DNA from: a virus
Reading direction: 5' to 3' (one strand)
Virus record (IMG/VR): IMGVR_UViG_3300029996_000158
DNA: 64,000 bases
Positions within the stretch are counted from its first letter, which is position 1. Each line of letters begins with the position of its first letter. Under the pieces are notes generated by a model, which searched no databases, had not been told where the DNA came from, and saw nothing but the letters and a program-made list of their open reading frames with translations. The translations under genes were made by a program, and so were the position numbers. Positions 8,864 to 62,443 of this stretch are shown here, piece after piece.

Positions 8864-8880
8864 AATTTTTATATTATAAA

Positions 8881-14963: not shown

Positions 14964-15042
14964 TTATTATATAAAATATTTGCATAATAAAATAAAGCAT
15001 TATATATTTGCATTAAATAATAATTAAATAAAAAGGATATGG
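14964..15042 (+). promoter_or_regulatory. 79-nt promoter-leader cassette, copy 1
   Basis: Identical to 20006-20084 and 78/79 identical to 18429-18507. Holds TTTGCAT at 14979 and 15007 and runs into the ATG at 15039. Confidence 0.7.
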
Positions 15043-17207: not shown

Positions 17208-17480
17208 AAAACCTAAAAATAATAAATCCTCTTCTCACAAGACTAGTAATTAGGTTCTAGGAATTTTATAATTTTGGAGTAAATAAAAACAATTACCTAA
17301 TAACCAATAGGTTAGGCCTTAAAATCCTAAAACAAAAATTAATTGTAGATACTAAACATATAGGTCTGAATATCATAGTTATTGGTAATGTAATCATTGA
17401 TAAAATTGGGATTATTGGTATTAGGATTACCCAACAAAAAATCCCAATAAATTGCCAAAAGAAATAATCAGAAATTTAAT

Positions 17481-17516
17481 AGTGGGTACCTTAATTAGTT
17501 TACCCACTATTTTTCT
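17481..17516 (+). terminator. rho-independent terminator
   Basis: AGTGGGTA / TACCCACT stem followed by ATTTTTCT. Confidence 0.7.
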
Positions 17517-17562
17517 GTGTATTTTAACCATATTGAATAATAAGTAAAAATCCTATATAATC

Positions 17563-20769: not shown

Positions 20770-21132
20770 ATGATAAAGAGATTAGTTAACAAAGTAGACC
20801 CAAGTGAATTTTTATCGGATTACACATATAATGCACTTATATACCTATGTGATTCAGGAAAAGAATTTGCTAATTGTTTGAATAATATCCAAGAACATAA
20901 TTTTAAAAAGGAAGCTATAGATTCCCAAATACACAATATGTTCAAACAGGTTCATTTAGAAAACCAAATACATAATTCAGACTTTGGTGCTTTTAAAATA
21001 AATGGGGAAATATACCCATCTATAAAATTCAAACTAAAAGAAGATTTAATACATGACTGGTTCTTAATTGGTACTCCAAATGCTATAATATTATTAGCAA
21101 ATAATCCATTATATGAAACTGAACAAAACTAA
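20770..21132 (+). CDS. hypothetical protein
   Basis: Co-oriented ORF. Confidence 0.55.
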   Translation: MIKRLVNKVDPSEFLSDYTYNALIYLCDSGKEFANCLNNIQEHNFKKEAIDSQIHNMFKQVHLENQIHNSDFGAFKINGEIYPSIKFKLKEDLIHDWFLIGTPNAIILLANNPLYETEQN

Positions 21133-21137
21133 ATATC

Positions 21138-21476
21138 ATGAAACTATCCACAAAAATCCAAAAACTCTTTGATGATACATTCAAAGGGAAAGATTATTAT
21201 AAATTCCTCAATCTGTTATCCACTTATGATAACAGATTCCATACCATAGTAATAAAGGTAGATATGGAATCTATGGAACTAATACAAAAGCTAAGATTAA
21301 TATCATTTCTCATATTATCATCTATATTTAAATATAAGACTGATACCTTTGAACGCATTGGAGAAATAGAAACTGAATTCTTAGTAATAAGGTCCTATCA
21401 AGATAGAAAATACCAAATGAATACAATCTTATTCAAAGACTCTGGAATTATCCAAATAAGCATACTGGAAATATGA
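21138..21476 (+). CDS. hypothetical protein
   Basis: Co-oriented ORF. Confidence 0.55.
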   Translation: MKLSTKIQKLFDDTFKGKDYYKFLNLLSTYDNRFHTIVIKVDMESMELIQKLRLISFLILSSIFKYKTDTFERIGEIETEFLVIRSYQDRKYQMNTILFKDSGIIQISILEI

Positions 21477-21727
21477 AACTGTTAGCTCATCTCATATATC
21501 TATTAAATGAACAAGGGGTAGGTAATACATTTTACCTATCCCCAATCATTAAAAAAATCCTAGATAACCACTATGAACAAGAAAGAAAAGCTAAGTTATC
21601 AACAATGAAGGTATACATTAGGAAGTTTACAAATAATGGTTATCTTAAAAAAGAACCAGGACATTATATCCTATTAAAACCAATCCCAACAGATTTAACT
21701 ACCACAATTATAAGAACTTGGAAATGA
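21473..21727 (+). CDS. hypothetical protein (possible winged-helix)
   Basis: ATGA overlap; the KVYIRKFTNNGYLKKEPGHYILLKP segment resembles a wing, but the evidence is weak. Confidence 0.45.
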   Translation: MKLLAHLIYLLNEQGVGNTFYLSPIIKKILDNHYEQERKAKLSTMKVYIRKFTNNGYLKKEPGHYILLKPIPTDLTTTIIRTWK

Positions 21728-22086
21728 ACTCAGACCTAAAAATTACTTTATCAAGGGTAATAGAAAAACCATTACAAATCAATGGTATAGATACTGAAAC
21801 CCAATACATTCATGAACTATTCAAACGTTTGGTATTCTATGAATTACTAAACAAACTAAACCTAAAAGACCTATACTATTATAGGGACAATGTCAAATAC
21901 TGCCCAGGTAAGGTAGAGATAAACTTCGTACTAAACAAGGAAGAACTAGACCTATTAATAAACCAAATATCCAGTATGGATAATGTACAACAAACCTATA
22001 TAAAATTTCAAAAAGAACTAAGCAATCTAAGCAAGGAAGAACAAAAAGAATTATTAGAGTTAATAATCAGAAGAAATAATATCTAA
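21718..22086 (+). CDS. hypothetical protein
   Basis: 10-nt overlap with the upstream ORF; first gene with the C-rich, G-poor composition. Confidence 0.55.
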   Translation: MEMNSDLKITLSRVIEKPLQINGIDTETQYIHELFKRLVFYELLNKLNLKDLYYYRDNVKYCPGKVEINFVLNKEELDLLINQISSMDNVQQTYIKFQKELSNLSKEEQKELLELIIRRNNI

Positions 22087-22117
22087 GTCTCTAGAACTCA
22101 AAATAAAAAAGCAAATT

Positions 22118-22654
22118 ATGGAAGATTTAAACCTATTATCAGAAAATATAATAAACCAAATCCTAAGTAAAATAACCCAGATAAATTGGAATGAAGACCA
22201 GGTAGATACAACCCTAAACCAAATATCCCAGATAGAAAAAGAACTAAATCTAGACCATGACCTAATCCTACTACCAAACTTCCCATATATAAAGGGTTAC
22301 CTAGACGATTACAAATTCCTGATAATTCTAGAGAATAAAAGATATATCCTCCTCCAAGATATACCAAACCAATTATATGACTATCTAGAACAAATAGAAT
22401 TAATACCAATCCAAGGATATAAAACCACCTACCAAGACCTAGAATACAAATACAAATACCACATCAAGTTCCGAACCCAAATAAACCAAATAAAGAACCA
22501 AGTATCCGATAAAACCGAATCCCTGATAGAGAACCTAATAATAACCAACAACCTAGAAAATATAAACATAGACCTAGTGATTAAATCCGATAAAGAACCT
22601 AATAATATCCCCGAACAAAAACCAACAAAAGAACTTAATCCCAAGACTAAGTAA
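22118..22654 (+). CDS. hypothetical protein
   Basis: 178-aa ORF with a markedly G-poor coding strand. Confidence 0.55.
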   Translation: MEDLNLLSENIINQILSKITQINWNEDQVDTTLNQISQIEKELNLDHDLILLPNFPYIKGYLDDYKFLIILENKRYILLQDIPNQLYDYLEQIELIPIQGYKTTYQDLEYKYKYHIKFRTQINQIKNQVSDKTESLIENLIITNNLENINIDLVIKSDKEPNNIPEQKPTKELNPKTK

Positions 22655-22761
22655 ATAGGATTAAATACTATCAGGTACCCAGAACAAAATAAAGAACCAA
22701 ATCCCAAGACCTAAGAATAAGAACCAACCCCAAACAAAAAATTAATAAAAATAAATAATAT

Positions 22762-22830
22762 AAAGGAACCTAATATAAATACCTCTATATAATAAACTTA
22801 TAAATATAAGGTATCTAAGGTTCCTTTTTT
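22762..22830 (+). terminator. long hairpin terminator closing the early gene array
   Basis: AAAGGAACC (22762-22770) pairs with GGTTCCTTT (22819-22827), with inner ATACCT/AGGTAT pairing, followed by a T run. Confidence 0.6.
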
Positions 22831-23049
22831 GTTTCAGGATTATTAAATCCCAGTATAAAAATAGACCTTCCCAAAAAATTGAAAAAACCTATTTCTAAGC
22901 TCAAAACTAATATCAAAATAGCTCACTTTTGAGCCCAAAGCCGGGATGTTTTTCGGTAGCTCTAGGAAGTTCCAAGGAGTACTGTTCCCACCTACCCAAA
23001 GGCTACCTTGTGGCCCTTATTTTAGGGCCCAAAAGGCTGCCCAGAGGTA

Positions 23050-23101
23050 CCTAAAAAGCCCTAAAACCCCTACCTAAAATTGCCTAAAAGGCAACCTAAA
23101 A
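23050..23101 (+). repeat. five CCTAAAA iteron-like repeats at 10-13 nt spacing
   Basis: CCTAAAA at 23050, 23060, 23073, 23083 and 23095. Confidence 0.85.
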
Positions 23102-23226
23102 TCCAAATCTAGGTACCTAAGAATCCTTATCTAGGACCTTCAAGGATTAAAGCCCAAATGACGACATACCTCTATATATCATACAAAACATATACTATTC
23201 AAAATCCCAAGAAATAAATTGCCTAA

Positions 23227-23244
23227 ATCCGAATCCGAATCCGA
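23227..23244 (+). repeat. (ATCCGA)x3 tandem repeat
   Basis: ATCCGAATCCGAATCCGA. Inverted TTCGGAT-like copies occur at about 23451 and 23541. Confidence 0.85.
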
Positions 23245-23303
23245 ACCTTAACCCAATACTCCCTCTAATATAATATATATATTATATAATAAAGTACTTA
23301 GGA

Positions 23304-23317
23304 TTCAAGGCCTTGAA
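23304..23317. repeat. perfect 14-bp palindrome TTCAAGGCCTTGAA
   Basis: Read directly from the sequence; it is the symmetry centre of the surrounding motif field. Confidence 0.95.
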
Positions 23318-23846
23318 ATTATTTAGGATTCTGAAAGAATACTGATATACTATAGTATTGAGTACTATCATGCTTTAAATTAAAATCCTAATCCTACTAG
23401 GCCTTAAATTTACTTTATATTATTATATAATATATATATATAATATAAGGGTTCGGATTTATTAATTTAGGCAATTCTGGGTACCCAGAATTATTAGGTT
23501 TAGGTACCTATATTTAGGGATTTTGGGTTCTGGTTTATAATCGGATTTTGTTTTCAGGTACCTAGAATAGGTAATTTATTTTAGGATTTAGGGCCCAAAA
23601 GTATCTGGGATTTTTAAAATTTCCCATCAACAATGTGCAAAAGATTTAAGGCCCTTTGGGTTATTTTCAATAAACATCTTAGTAAGTTATTAGTATAAAG
23701 TTAAGAGTTAATATTAAAACTAATAAATAAGTTCTAGAAGGTATATTAAAATTAATGATAAGTAGACCATATAGTGGAGATATGAGATATCAAGTATATT
23801 TTAGAGGATTAAAAATTAAGGCTTAATTCAAGGCCCCGAATTTTTA

Positions 23847-23881
23847 TTTGCATATTATTATATTATATATTATATTTGCAT
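23847..23881 (+). promoter_or_regulatory. Bacteroidota-type promoter (-33 TTTGCAT / -7 TAtaTTTGcat)
   Basis: TTTGCAT at 23847 and 23875 (28 nt apart), upstream of the ATG at 23932. Confidence 0.65.
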
Positions 23882-23931
23882 TGCAATTAAATGCAATAAT
23901 ATTATTTAACAACACTTAAACATTAAACACA

Positions 23932-24297
23932 ATGATTACAATCAAAAGTCATTTTTCATTCTCAGGAATCAATATTCCTAGTACAGTTACTTGTTCAATT
24001 ACCTCTTATTTTAAGGGGGACACCTTTATCCAGGACATTGATTTCCCAACCACATTAATCACAGAGCCTCTGGGACAAAATTACATTAAAACAATAATAA
24101 AAAACAATCTAGAGACTCTAGAAAACTACCTAACCCAGTTAAGACAATATCCTAATGACTCAGAAATTGCCTCGGAAACAATAGAACTATTCAATGCAAT
24201 AAAACAAATAAATAAACACTTATTGCCCAATAACCAAATATTTGACCTAGACTCATATAACCCAACAATACAAAACCTTTTAAATAACTTAAAATAA
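23932..24297 (+). CDS. hypothetical protein
   Basis: ORF with its own promoter; C-rich, G-poor coding strand. Confidence 0.55.
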   Translation: MITIKSHFSFSGINIPSTVTCSITSYFKGDTFIQDIDFPTTLITEPLGQNYIKTIIKNNLETLENYLTQLRQYPNDSEIASETIELFNAIKQINKHLLPNNQIFDLDSYNPTIQNLLNNLK

Positions 24298-24305
24298 TAA
24301 CCACT

Positions 24306-24728
24306 ATGGATGCTCTAGAACTTAACAATCAAATTGCACAATTAATCACAGATTTCATCGCTTATATCCCCACAATAGGGGAATTCGACCCAAGCAATGA
24401 AAGACCTAACAAGGATTTCATTCCAATCCTAGAACTTGCAAACCTAAATTACACATTGCACCCAAATGATCACTCCTCACAATTAAATATAACGCTTAGA
24501 AATACAATGGATTCTAAGGAAGAGGAATTCAATGAATATCTACAAAATAGAATCGGTGAATATGTTCAAGGTTTCATTGAAAAGTTAACACAATTAACAG
24601 GATTACATCAAATCCCAGTTAATAATACCCAATTAAAAATATATCAACACCCAAGAATGGGGGATACCTTAACATATCATGAATCAGATTTCAATTATTA
24701 TATTACTTATTCACAATATTTAGACTAA
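24306..24728 (+). CDS. hypothetical protein
   Basis: Follows the previous ORF by 8 nt and is followed by a terminator. Confidence 0.55.
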   Translation: MDALELNNQIAQLITDFIAYIPTIGEFDPSNERPNKDFIPILELANLNYTLHPNDHSSQLNITLRNTMDSKEEEFNEYLQNRIGEYVQGFIEKLTQLTGLHQIPVNNTQLKIYQHPRMGDTLTYHESDFNYYITYSQYLD

Positions 24729-24761
24729 GTTTCCATAATAATAACATAATCCTGAATGACT

Positions 24762-24791
24762 GGGAGACCTAAAAAGTCTCCCTTTCTTTTT
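24762..24791 (+). terminator. rho-independent terminator
   Basis: GGGAGAC / GTCTCCC stem followed by TTTCTTTTT. Confidence 0.8.
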
Positions 24792-24984
24792 GTGAATCAG
24801 AAAATTCCTACCAACAAAGGCCCAAACCGAAAAGAGCCTTTACCTTATGACAATTATTGTAATCCTGATTTTAAGAATCACCCAATAAATTACTTCCTAC
24901 GCCCTATAACACATCCTGACCCAATATTCAGGAACTCAATCCTACACTTACCCACTGGGAGCAAAATTATTATATAATATATGA

Positions 24985-25013
24985 TTGGAATAAAAATATA
25001 ATTATTATATTTG
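24985..25013 (+). promoter_or_regulatory. Bacteroidota-type promoter (-33 TTG / -7 TAtaTTTG)
   Basis: TTG at 24985-24987, an 18-nt spacer, then TATATTTG at 25006-25013, 33 nt before the ATG at 25046. Confidence 0.55.
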
Positions 25014-25045
25014 CATTGTATTATTAACAACTAAAATTTATTTTT

Positions 25046-25603
25046 ATGGAAACAAAAAATTATTTAGAGAGAGTAAACGAATTAAATGCAATTGCAACTA
25101 ATTTATTTATGGGACCCACAAAACCCAATTACAAACTTGCCATAATTACGACCATAGACTATGCAGGAGCCTATGGACTTGCATTACCTGGCAGCCTAAA
25201 CCTTATTAATAACGAATACTTCGAAATAACGGGTAATCCAGAACTCGAGGGTTACTTTGCCCAAGTAACCTCCTTACCCTTTACCACTCAGGAAAACCTA
25301 AAACGACAAATCGCTTTAATAATAAATTACAACATAATTTACCTAAATAACTGGTTAAACTCCAATCCTGACGATGGGGACTATTTCGACTATATACCTA
25401 GCTTAATCGACCAAATGCTCCAACTAATAAACTTAGGCTTTAAAACCTTGGACACTTTTAAAACGGAATACAACCATATTTACGAAAAACTCCAAACACA
25501 AATTAATAAATATAACGAAATGGACCCCGAAAACGGTGCAAACCATATTAACCTAAATACCTTCACCTTAACCGAAGGTTACATGATACATATGCACCTA
25601 TAA
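25046..25603 (+). CDS. hypothetical protein
   Basis: Stand-alone promoter-ORF-terminator unit. Its start region TTTATGGAAACAAAAAATT is shared with the 26317 ORF. Confidence 0.6.
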   Translation: METKNYLERVNELNAIATNLFMGPTKPNYKLAIITTIDYAGAYGLALPGSLNLINNEYFEITGNPELEGYFAQVTSLPFTTQENLKRQIALIINYNIIYLNNWLNSNPDDGDYFDYIPSLIDQMLQLINLGFKTLDTFKTEYNHIYEKLQTQINKYNEMDPENGANHINLNTFTLTEGYMIHMHL

Positions 25604-25620
25604 AAAACCTAAACCCAATT

Positions 25621-25653
25621 AGGAGCCCTCAACAATGGGCTCCTTTTATTTTC
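25621..25653 (+). terminator. rho-independent terminator
   Basis: AGGAGCCC / GGGCTCCT stem followed by TTTATTTTC. A second 9-bp hairpin (CTTAAAGGG / CCCTTTAAG) follows at 25656-25683. Confidence 0.85.
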
Positions 25654-25706
25654 GCCTTAAAGGGACCACCTACGCCCTTTAAGCAAAATTAGCAAATTTT
25701 ATCAAT

Positions 25707-25751
25707 CGCTTGAATCCTTATATCGCTTGAAAATAACCACATACGCTTGAA
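25707..25751 (+). repeat. three direct CGCTTGAA repeats
   Basis: CGCTTGAA at 25707, 25724 and 25744 (spacing 17 and 20 nt). Confidence 0.85.
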
Positions 25752-26135
25752 AACCTTTTACTATCTAATCTTTCCTTATCTATCAAAGAAACAAGGCAAT
25801 ATATAAACCCTATTCTAGAGCCTCAAAGAATTTAAACATATTTACTCTAATGGCCATAATTCTATTATTTCTAAGAAATATTACTTCCTACCTGATTTAC
25901 TACATACCCAATCCTAAATATATAACCCAATATAAATACCAACAAATCGATTTCCTAAAACTATACATACCTAATCAGATAATTAATATATTGCTAACAA
26001 CGCATGTGCACCTTTCAGGCATACCAACAATGGTTCCCATCAACAAGGGCCTAATCTTACTAACGCCTTCAGACCCCCGTGGCAAATTTGTAAAAAATTG
26101 TAAAAAGAAATAAAAATAAAAATTATTTATTTTCA

Positions 26136-26188
26136 TTCTAAATAATTTTTTATTTAGAAAATTTCTAAATAATTTTTTTCTAAATAAT
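26136..26188 (+). repeat. three direct TTCTAAATAAT repeats, the first embedded in a 20-bp palindrome
   Basis: TTCTAAATAAT at 26136, 26163 and 26178. CTAAATAATTTTTTATTTAG at 26138-26157 is a perfect inverted repeat. Confidence 0.85.
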
Positions 26189-26205
26189 AATTTTTATTTT
26201 TTAAC

Positions 26206-26236
26206 TTGCACAATAAAAATAAAAGCCCTATATTTG
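26206..26236 (+). promoter_or_regulatory. Bacteroidota-type promoter (-33 TTG / -7 TAtaTTTG)
   Basis: TTG at 26206-26208, a 20-nt spacer, then TATATTTG at 26229-26236. Confidence 0.5.
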
Positions 26237-26316
26237 TAACGTAATCGAAAGGGAGATATTTCCTAATTCATTACACATTATTATATTATTGTTTAACTTT
26301 CTAATTTTTTTTATTT

Positions 26317-30845: not shown

Positions 30846-31856
30846 ATGGGTAAATTAAGAGTACTTGGAGTATGTGGAGCTCAAGGAGCTTTATTATTCC
30901 CATTTAAAAAGTATTTAATTGGTAATATTGAACCAAGAGCAGTATTTCATACAAAAAATGAAGAACAATGGAAATTAAATTTTGGTGAAATACCTTTCAA
31001 AAGAGACCCTGAATCATTTAAAGGCCAAGTAGATATTATAATTGGTTCCCCTTCTTGTGGTCATTCTAGTGTTTTTAGTTATTCAAGGAAGAAAACCCTT
31101 GGTAAACCAAAAGAAGATAAAACTTTGAATCTATTTTTAACCTCTTTGAGCATGTTTAAACCCAAAATATTCTTAATGGAAAACCTTCCAAAACTTTTTG
31201 ATTTAATTCCAAGAGAAGAATGGGAAGCAAAATTGCAAAATTATCACTTAATTGTTCATTGCCATTCAGTATTTGACTTTGGTAATTCACAAAAATCACG
31301 AAAAAGACTGATTTTAATTGGTATAATGAAGGATTCTGACATAAAAATATCCAATTTTGAGGATATTTTTCCAGTATCAACCCCAATTTTAGTATCAGAA
31401 ATTGAAAAATTAGTGAGAAAGGACTTAAATTTCAGAGAAAATGATGATAAAAAGCTAGCTATGTATCATCATTCTGATAAATCCAAGAAAACTTTAACAG
31501 TAAAAGAAGTAAAAAACTTATGGTTAGGTGAATTTAAGAAGGAATATAAATGGCCAATGAAAAATACCAAAATGAAAACATTACCAGGAGTGTATAGGAA
31601 TAGAAAAAACAGTTATCCATTAACTGTAAGACCATCAAATAGGCAATTTAATCCCAATGGTGATATTATGGGGTTAGAGGAATATCGGATTATTATGGGA
31701 TTCCCAAAAAGGTTCAAGGTATATATGGATATGAATAATTTAAATTATTGGCTCAATAAAGGAAGAAATACATTAACAAAAGGCTCAGTTTATGAGGTTG
31801 GAATATGGTTTAAAAAATGCCTAAAAAAACAATTCAGGAATATGGAAACCCCCTAA
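30846..31856 (+). CDS. DNA (cytosine-5) methyltransferase-like, divergent motifs
   Basis: Motif I-like LGVCGAQGA, motif IV-like GSPSCGHS (in place of GGPPCQ), motif VI FLMENLP, motif VIII QKSRKRLILIG, and C-terminal EYRIIMGFP. Confidence 0.7.
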   Translation: MGKLRVLGVCGAQGALLFPFKKYLIGNIEPRAVFHTKNEEQWKLNFGEIPFKRDPESFKGQVDIIIGSPSCGHSSVFSYSRKKTLGKPKEDKTLNLFLTSLSMFKPKIFLMENLPKLFDLIPREEWEAKLQNYHLIVHCHSVFDFGNSQKSRKRLILIGIMKDSDIKISNFEDIFPVSTPILVSEIEKLVRKDLNFRENDDKKLAMYHHSDKSKKTLTVKEVKNLWLGEFKKEYKWPMKNTKMKTLPGVYRNRKNSYPLTVRPSNRQFNPNGDIMGLEEYRIIMGFPKRFKVYMDMNNLNYWLNKGRNTLTKGSVYEVGIWFKKCLKKQFRNMETP

Positions 31857-31889
31857 CGCGTACGTATGCGCTTATCTTTAATTAATATA

Positions 31890-31926
31890 AATATATAGAT
31901 AGATATTATATATCTATCTATATATT
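31890..31926. repeat. AT-only palindrome with 17-bp arms
   Basis: AATATATAGATAGATAT-TAT-ATATCTATCTATATATT. It is flanked by direct TACGTATGCGC (31861) and TACGTATGCACGC (31926) repeats. Confidence 0.9.
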
Positions 31927-31962: not shown

Positions 31963-32085
31963 GTGCGTAATATATTTATACCCTCTAAAAGGGTAAATAA
32001 ATATATTTTACTCTTTTTAGAGGAGGGAATAAATCAAAAAGAATAAGGGGAACTATTGGTAATAAATCCGAAAAATTTTTATGTT

Positions 32086-62313: not shown

Positions 62314-62443
62314 TATAATAATTTTATCACTTGTATGAAAATATATCAACTTTTTCACCCTATGTGTTGATTTTTATAAAATTGAAATATAAATGAATCT
62401 AGAAAAGACTACTCATAGATACAACTTTCATATATGTAAAGAC

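Follow-up and report, generated by a model that had tools for sequence, protein, structure and literature searches.

The DNA analysed here is a 64-kb window (64,000 nucleotides; "the window" below always means this whole stretch) of IMG/VR record IMGVR_UViG_3300029996_000158, from a contractile-tailed phage of ~29% G+C. Positions 22708-23931 of the window (1,224 bp) are free, in every frame, of open reading frames (ORFs) reaching 60 aa. The gap had been noticed in an original prediction made from the letters alone, which read the region as a non-coding, motif-built element working at the DNA level and as a candidate origin of replication or DNA-processing site. A six-frame ORF check bore the gap out, and it is the largest of its kind in the window, the runner-up measuring 462 bp. 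TAA stops are present in all six frames of the region; therefore, alternative genetic codes restore no ORF, and stop-codon recoding was ruled out. A small ORF of 43 aa (22946-23077) was considered as a gene and rejected, as it is frame-shifted in relatives by an 11-nt indel. The region is placed between two co-directional early operons, with a terminator at 22762-22830 and a promoter at 23846-23881. Its full structure recurs from end to end, at 92-93% identity, in two independent contigs (L121 and L122), and thus it is not an assembly artefact.

Then, we compared the locus with its relatives. More than 60 of them, belonging to three clades, carry an ORF-free region of 0.7-1.3 kb at the syntenic position; alignment to these relatives, which had been proposed as the check for a decayed pseudogene, found none with a gene at the site. 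The conservation of position across the three clades supports the reading of a non-coding element built of motifs and acting as DNA. In the commonest clade (L001-L009 and L034-L054), whose flanks are 88-92% identical to those of the window, the site is occupied by a one-directional array of ~450 bp, made of TTTTAGGTACCTAAAA, GGGCCCAAAAGGCAATTTTT, TAGGATTT and TCGGATTT. Typical arrays have six copies of the 16-bp palindrome TTTTAGGTACCTAAAA, at spacings that are multiples of ~10.75 bp (43 bp included), and AT-only blocks are not present.

The arrays of this clade have a periodicity of 10.75-10.85 bp with a spectral power of 36-41. When the order of ~12-bp blocks was shuffled, the power fell to 11-12 and none of the 300 shuffles attained the observed value; a register kept over ~40 turns therefore exceeds an effect of local spacing. 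The words GGTACC, GGCAA, GGGCC and GGCCC share a common helical phase (R about 0.9), and the A/T tracts stand at the opposite phase. Furthermore, the phase is preserved by two natural indels, with length differences of 77 nt (7.13 turns) in one case and 206 nt (19.07 turns) in the other. Read from the sequence, this suggests that the DNA is intrinsically curved, that a dimeric protein binds it cooperatively on a single helical face, or both. The box itself is specific for the locus. The strict palindrome T[AT][AG]GGTACC[CT][AT]A occurs in 75 copies among 33 loci (~12 kb each) of two clades, and all 75 fall inside the syntenic non-coding region, at distances of 1-4 kb upstream from the marker gene, with no copy in the other ~9 kb per locus. 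Outside the family, a search of IMG/VR with the 16-bp box returned single chance matches only.

In the window, the region and its edges are laid out as follows (no strand is given where none was assigned).

22601-22734, plus strand: low-complexity A/C-rich stretch whose 63-nt repeat (families D1, D2 and D4) extends over the stop codon (22654) of the 178-aa orphan gene upstream

22762-22830, plus strand: intrinsic terminator closing the upstream early operon (inverted repeat I19, -18.8 kcal/mol, z = -2.4, then U6), as originally predicted

22920-22935, minus strand: small terminator-like hairpin with a T-run, found by the terminator scan; relatives have a different hairpin at the same site

22938-22995: block A, a non-repetitive core (GCCGGG..TTTTT.GGT..TCTAGG.., an 8-9 nt variable island, then ..GTACTGTT.CCC), common to the commonest clade in the alignments

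23020-23135: left mini-array, with GGGCCC, two GGTACC, five CCTAAAA and a TTGCC-TAAAA-GGCAA dyad by motif positions; nearly invariant in the sub-clade of the window

23226-23245: (AATCCG)3.3 microsatellite, from the tandem repeat finder; copy number 2 or 3 among relatives

23263-23297: left AT-only block (inverted repeats I1, I5 and I13), with a 20-bp perfect AT palindrome at 23268-23287

23304-23317: perfect 14-bp palindrome TTCAAGGCCTTGAA, invariant in 9/9 relatives of the sub-clade and not found in the other clades

23329-23611 (approximate start): dispensable segment, the entire right arm, cleanly absent by BLAST and alignment from seven contigs (L113-L119) of different samples

23399-23449, plus strand: AGGCCT and right AT-only block (inverted repeat I1); the block had been placed at about 23411-23449 in the original prediction

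23452-23600: right arm array, with its G-rich strand carrying TCGGATT twice, GGTACC three times and the 20-bp palindrome AATTCTGGGTACCCAGAATT (23473-23492)

23613-23845, plus strand: block D, a conserved non-repetitive untranslated stretch 5' of the promoter (80-100% identity to relatives, fold z = -0.3)

23846-23881, plus strand: early promoter cassette ATTTGCAT-N20-ATTTGCAT at the right edge of the region, assigned to the gene at 23932

All the motif positions listed in the original prediction were confirmed by motif and repeat search. CCTAAAA starts at 23050, 23060, 23073, 23083 and 23095, and GGTACC at 22674, 23046, 23112, 23480, 23503 and 23557; GGGCCC is found at 23025 and 23591, the direct repeat TTTAGGGCCCAAAAG at 23021 and 23587, three ATCCGA at 23227-23244, and TCGGAT at 23453 and 23541. 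Enrichment within the region is strong for AGGTACC (8 copies versus 0.1 expected), CCTAAA (13 versus 0.65) and ATCCGA (5 versus 0.11). Three of the 13 perfect palindromes of at least 14 bp in the window are also located here (23268-23287, 23304-23317 and 23473-23492), the longest being of 20 bp. GGTACC is over-represented beyond the region too, with 26 copies genome-wide versus 7.4 expected from dinucleotide shuffles, which makes a role in restriction-site avoidance or as a decoy unlikely. A similar vocabulary (three CCTAAAA, AGGCCTTAAAATCCTAAAA, TAGGATT and GGGTACCT) is present in the intergenic patch at 17208-17562, where it forms no array.

The relation of this copy to the typical array was assessed by alignment. 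Despite the similar flanks, window positions 22565-23450/23550 could not be aligned by BLAST to the commonest clade. Block A and the left mini-array (23020-23135) align to the left edge of the typical array, and the right arm (23450-23612) aligns to its right end; the middle (~23136-23450), with the 14-bp palindrome and two inverted AT-rich units, is confined to the sub-clade of the window. As judged from these alignments, the copy in the window is a rearranged derivative of the typical array. The claim of helically phased iterons held for one part only: the 116 bp of 23020-23135 reach a power of 10.9 at 10.85 bp, equalled by 1 of 300 block shuffles, while the right arm is not periodic (126/300 shuffles reach its value) and neither is the region as a whole.

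The sub-clade was found via the 178-aa upstream protein and comprises L113-L119, L121 and L122. The full region is retained in the last two, and in the other seven a 283-nt deletion, joining two GGATT microhomologies, has taken out the second AGGCCT, the right AT block and the whole right arm. Variation within the sub-clade also includes the number of ATCCGA copies (2 or 3).

These comparisons bear on the dyad symmetry that had been proposed about TTCAAGGCCTTGAA. GGGCCC (+/-283) and GGTACC (-196/+195) are indeed mirrored about 23310.5, with the pairs offset by 1-4 nt in L121 and L122, and the two AT-only blocks form an offset inverted pair as claimed, centred at 23356. At the level of bases, however, complementarity about 23310.5 is weak (z = 2.5), and other centres, such as 23356, are equal or better, so that the proposed large imperfect palindrome does not stand. 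What is mirrored is the orientation and approximate position of motif classes, not the base-level sequence. Since the middle is restricted to the sub-clade and the right arm is deleted in seven relatives, the symmetry is, on this comparative reading, a lineage-specific rearrangement, half of which is dispensable in nature. The predicted origin anatomy (the dyad, the large palindrome, the paired AT blocks and phasing throughout) is therefore not conserved in relatives.

The most distant of the three clades (L057-L112), that of GenBank record MT121964 and Flandersviridae, has ~40-60% protein identity to the window. Its syntenic ORF-free region of 0.7-1.1 kb contains the boxes TTAAGGTACCTTAA, TTTAGGGTACCCTAAA and AAGGCC, AT-only blocks and a conserved complex core of ~200 nt; blocks A and D, searched with nhmmer, had no match in this clade. 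A variable hairpin precedes this core, which is non-repetitive (L069 3790-4040 and its homologues in L057-L112) and includes an invariant GTTACTATACGTAkTAGCTA as well as TACTGTGTACCC. Words similar to TACTGTGTACCC also follow the variable island of block A (TACTGTTTACCCC in the commonest clade, TACTGTTCCCA at 22982-22992 of the window); this likeness may reflect a shared recognition core or chance, and we consider it a lead only. In the same early non-coding zone, other simple tandem repeats, (AACCAACT)n and (CTTATATTGG)n (L088 1-110 and L075 1-40), form the contig ends of two distant relatives. More in general, the assemblies of relatives break at the region because of the repeats of the element.

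The A/C-rich low complexity of the 3' end of the 178-aa gene covers 22400-22734, and identity to close relatives over 22618-22817 is only 58-65%, with gaps, the A/C-rich repeat being an indel hotspot. Equivalents of the terminator hairpin were found in relatives. The promoter cassette is also present at 8880, 13753, 14978, 18443 and 20020, giving six copies, each before early genes; we take these cassettes to fit the Bacteroidota promoter pattern (-33 TTTG / -7 TAnnTTTG). Those at 14978, 18443 and 20020 belong to near-identical repeats of ~75 nt that include the ribosome-binding region, where metagenome contigs of relatives often break. A scan with the promoter consensus between the terminator and 23846, AT blocks included, found no match. 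The left AT-only block is like an inverted early-promoter spacer lacking the TTTG anchors, and 23399-23449 resembles the AGGCC-prefixed early promoter cassette of relatives (e.g., MT121964) without TTTG/TAnnTTTG. Because of the upstream terminator and the absence of an internal promoter consensus, the region is probably untranscribed.

The surrounding genome encodes UvsX, SbcC, large terminase, portal, major head protein, sheath and tape measure, together with a 5'-3' exonuclease, an SbcD-like phosphoesterase, a PDDEXK nuclease and a C5-methylase; the right end of the window carries a DnaB-like helicase (position 62393). The large terminase (TerL) matches the Terminase_6N (T4-type) N-domain, and its nearest matches are those of cyanomyoviruses, Flavobacterium myoviruses and Ackermannviridae (T4-superfamily myoviruses). 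Collinearity was found with the 75.5-kb record MT121964, which comes from human faeces. One of the more distant relatives from metagenomes, OJML01000036.1 (locus L068), is labelled Flandersviridae with its cluster-mates in the supplement of Benler et al. 2021 (PMC8008677). According to the same work, genomes of this family have ~76-85 kb, with a contractile-tail structural block, a DnaB/DnaG/PolA module and then ~20 kb of ORFs of unknown function; they assemble as closed circles with even coverage, and their hosts are Bacteroides and Parabacteroides (PMC8008677). On the basis of the collinearity, the labelled relatives and the DnaB at 62393, the sequence identifies the window phage as a Flandersviridae-like phage of gut Bacteroidales. 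A host and prophage search in genomes returned a single 4.5-kb contig of a metagenome-assembled genome and nothing else, and the comparison with GenBank phage DNA, near and distant, gave zero matches for 22708-23931 itself.

Other observations regard the rest of the window. The UvsX-like ORF (209-2419, 736 aa) has an intein-like LAGLIDADG homing-endonuclease insert at residues ~344-497, and the UvsX homologue of MT121964 aligns over 242 residues only. Over the plus-strand early genes of 21000-26000 the GC skew goes down to -0.45 and the AT skew is positive; mRNAs from this interval are A+C-rich and G-poor, the reverse of the remaining plus-strand genes. An A-tract periodicity of 10.5 bp (power about 19) is present at 31200-31600, in the C5-methylase gene (30846-31856), with (AT)21 at 31885-31925 and a putative small-terminase ORF at 32056 just downstream; the distant clade has a similar A-tract signal 3-4 kb downstream of the marker gene. 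This periodic DNA could be bent DNA for packaging.

We infer from the above that the region is probably a cis-acting, untranslated platform for protein binding or DNA curvature. A site of nucleoprotein assembly fits best because the element is in single copy, keeps its position in compact genomes, carries a locus-specific palindromic box and combines predicted curvature with nearby AT-rich DNA. Its vocabulary consists of short palindromes centred on GGTACC, GGGCCC and GGCC and of CCTAAA/TTTAGG and ATCCGA/TCGGAT half-sites, amid A/T tracts. In the typical form, words every ~10.8 bp over ~450 bp bring all G/C words onto one face of the helix, and the curved DNA would nucleate a multi-copy, one-face nucleoprotein complex with a putative dimeric box-binding protein. 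The copy in the window has a phased remnant of 116 bp on the left, a lineage-specific middle where palindromes accompany two inverted, AT-rich cassettes that resemble promoters, and a decayed, dispensable right arm.

Given that the platform occurs once per genome and that the phage is lytic and T4-like, its likeliest role would be that of an origin, where the initiator assembles. Melting would take place in the neighbouring AT-rich DNA, either the AT blocks of the window or the AT-rich promoter 250 bp downstream. The boxes and half-sites, strongly enriched at the sequence level, may be the repeated initiator-binding sites of an iteron-type origin; as for an AT unwinding element, two candidate blocks are present in the window and such blocks occur in the distant clade, but not in the commonest one. 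UvsX, SbcCD and the exonuclease would permit recombination-dependent replication, and because of this an origin could be partly dispensable and evolve fast, drifting, shrinking and losing parts. A phased nucleoprotein platform, most likely an origin, is our best explanation overall, to which we give a probability of about 0.4; that the region is specifically a replication origin is possible, if doubtful.

Several observations weigh against this explanation. No initiator, helicase loader or other DNA-binding gene was recognised beside the region by Pfam, PHROGs and PDB sequence searches, the neighbours being orphans; AlphaFold models of the 178-aa and 84-aa neighbours (predicted local distance difference test, pLDDT, of 54 and 44) were too poor for a fold search. 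DnaA boxes are absent from the window. The GC-skew extremes, at ~19 and ~31 kb, show no switch at the region, and GC skew was rejected as support for an origin, as its extremes track gene orientation and composition. The commonest clade lacks the AT-only blocks, and in seven relatives the loss of the right arm has taken one of them away. The long phased array was lost in the sub-clade of the window, so its role is not strictly essential, and periodicity may in part be a by-product of array growth. In addition, a rival candidate origin ~2 kb downstream looks at least as origin-like from its sequence. This second conserved non-coding stretch (25604-26316) is ORF-free in relatives too and holds only a doubtful 87-aa ORF. 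It contains direct repeats of CGCTTGAA at 25707, 25724 and 25744, the sole copies in the window (0.19 expected), a terminator (~25630-25650), a ~100-bp AT-only tract (~26100-26200) and a TAtATTTG promoter, followed by a conserved basic 119-aa gene.

Among the other explanations, the location exactly between a terminator and an early promoter is what a transcription-architectural element would have: a curved, protein-bound spacer insulating the upstream operon or regulating the promoter at 23846, in the form of an operator- or UP-like array to which a host nucleoid protein or a phage protein for the early/late switch would bind. AGGCC-prefixed promoter cassettes and decayed copies of them within the region, the promoters on either side of the motif patch of MT121964 and the curvature implied by phased A-tracts are coherent with it. 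The five other copies of the identical cassette, however, have no array, the GGTACC-centred palindromes are limited to this single locus, 250-800 bp upstream of the promoter is distant for an operator, and no regulator gene was identified among the neighbours, so we regard this reading as unlikely. A neutral, satellite-like spacer, born from slippage and from debris of promoters and terminators that was duplicated or inverted, its periodicity being inherited from the amplified unit, would explain why the region is unalignable between sub-clades with ~90% identical flanks, the microsatellite copy changes and the 283-nt microhomology deletion, the loss of the long array in the lineage of the window and the assembly breaks at its repeats. 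It is quite improbable in view of a gap of 0.7-1.3 kb persisting in compact genomes across clades at 40-60% protein identity, of a locus-specific palindromic box kept across clades and of a long-range phase coherence (0/300 shuffles) with phase-preserving indels. Comparably improbable is the idea that the ~40-turn array with its TTAGGTACCTAA-like box is a new phage chromosome organiser, that is, a solenoid- or filament-forming nucleoprotein scaffold. If true, it might serve episomal carriage or the positioning of the replicating genome in Bacteroides, bound by an orphan early protein; it would be unrelated to ParABS and ParMRC, and the lineage of the window would show an organiser under remodelling or loss. 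A centromere-like partition site for episomal carriage, with palindromic boxes bound by a ParB/ParR-like protein, has only a slim chance. The TTTTAGGTACCTAAAA palindromes of typical arrays are in helical register, 43-bp spacing included, an architecture similar to that of sopC (PMC3177203), and P1-like episomal persistence of these phages has been speculated by Benler et al. (PMC8008677). In the window the boxes keep the register only weakly, the array having decayed in this lineage, and no ParA/ParM/TubZ or ParB/ParR-family match was found in the scanned ORFs; partition genes were not found by Benler et al. either (PMC8008677).

Three alternatives had been raised with the original prediction itself, and the results disfavour each of them. 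A non-coding RNA locus, for example with transcription starting leftward in the inverted promoter-like cassette (23313-23263) and stopping at the minus-strand hairpin (22935-22915), would account for this terminator-like hairpin (replaced by a different one at the same site in relatives), for the conserved non-repetitive blocks A and D and for the syntenic ~200-nt element of the distant clade. Nevertheless, searches of the region for tRNA, tmRNA and Rfam families found nothing, with no Rfam match at gathering thresholds and otherwise chance-level hits, the fold z-scores (-0.3 and -1.7) are not significant, and the internal promoter consensus is lacking. The 10.8-nt register and the turn-preserving indels, being properties of duplex DNA, also argue against an RNA product, which is thus very unlikely. 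Equally so is a packaging or terminus site, either a pac site or a T7-like concatemer-junction region at the physical genome ends. It was suggested by the resemblance of the T7 end CCTAAAG arrays to the CCTAAAA/GGTACCTAAAA array of the window and by the many contigs, and the MT121964 record, that end in or near the region. Such contig ends were rejected as physical termini: they fall at differing positions within tandem repeats or the ~75-nt repeated cassettes, and are therefore assembly breaks. No terminal repeat is present in MT121964, terS/terL lie 9 kb away from the region, and a T4-type terminase does not agree with fixed ends (direct terminal repeats, DTR, or cos). Phages with this type of terminase typically package by headful, without fixed ends. 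Flandersviridae assemble as closed circles with even coverage (PMC8008677). Headful packaging would also imply that no fixed sequence enters first, and a DNA-entry control region like the T5 injection-stop (iss) is highly improbable; its gross anatomy fits the description of iss (bioRxiv 10.1101/866236) and it lies inside the early-gene region, but the window has no DnaA boxes and MT121964 gives no evidence of a terminal repeat. Finally, a telomere-resolution (protelomerase) target or a decayed pseudogene is scarcely credible. Palindromes are present, and the A/C-rich words found at the upstream gene's 3' end recur in the left arm; however, no protelomerase was found among the scanned ORFs, the longest perfect palindrome has 20 bp and the global dyad is weak (z = 2.5), while an intact gene stands at the site in 0 of the >60 relatives of the three clades and the 43-aa ORF is frame-shifted.

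In the human gut, Flandersviridae rank among the commonest phages; they are known mostly through metagenomes and have ~20 kb of genome without assigned function. Located now in this functionally dark region is a cis element that occurs in single copy, keeps its position and combines a defined box with a strict helical register; it offers a handle for locating the origin or another genome-organising site, its orphan binding protein, and replicons or engineering tools. The finding is real, and is more interesting in the context of the family than in the single window. It also carries a general lesson: the striking symmetry of a single strain can come from a rearrangement, disposable and limited to one lineage, of an ancestral array that was more regular.

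Lastly, we compared the phased platform with known systems. Ori-lambda has four 19-bp dyad-symmetric O-protein sites on bent DNA beside an AT-rich stretch, inside the initiator gene O. The element shares with it multiple short dyad sites, A-tract curvature, neighbouring AT-rich DNA and a single copy per genome; it differs in having no recognisable initiator nearby, a typical array about 10 times longer (~40 turns) and AT blocks that are not conserved across clades. The origins of T4, of which oriF and oriG are made of a promoter and a downstream unwinding element and oriE of iterons, are non-essential, poorly conserved and non-coding or promoter-linked, and replication later becomes recombination-dependent. 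The window phage has a similar recombination and packaging toolkit, whereas there is no sequence similarity to the T4 origins, no R-loop-transcript evidence, and the promoter lies 250 bp beyond the array. As for regulatory arrays, the phased TF1 sites of SPO1 and the p6 arrays of phi29 are comparable to the transcription-architectural alternative.

The T7 genome sequence was inspected directly for repeat arrays. Its ends carry ~20 CCTAAAG/CCTAAGG units, GGTACCTAAAG included, where no gene is present from the end of the last gene to the early promoters. These SRL/SRR arrays are similar to the element in being gene-free and in their many CCTAAA-core heptamers (T7 GGTACCTAAAG versus GGTACCTAAAAAG in the window). 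They differ in their 13-16 bp spacing and one orientation, and in flanking a 160-bp terminal repeat at fixed ends, while this phage has a T4-type terminase, a circular assembly and no terminal repeat. The 6-mer common to the two sequences may be a coincidence.

The T5 iss is a large untranslated stretch rich in repeats, inverted repeats and palindromes, located in the left long terminal repeat with eight ordered DnaA boxes (bioRxiv 10.1101/866236), whereas the window has neither DnaA boxes nor evidence of a terminal repeat. Among partition sites (type I and II plasmid centromeres), sopC of the F plasmid consists of 12 repeats of 43 bp, each with a 16-bp inverted repeat (PMC3177203), and parC of R1 of 11-bp iterons. 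Unlike in these, the units of the typical arrays do not follow each other as regular tandem copies, neither a partition ATPase nor a gene for centromere binding was found in the scanned ORFs and there is no known carrier state; as in sopC, 16-bp palindromic boxes are repeated in register (43 bp = 4 x 10.75), suited to cooperative binding on one face. Overall, the element is kin of known cis regions in lytic phages, untranslated and dense in repeats and palindromes, and its unusual part is the phased array of 40 turns.

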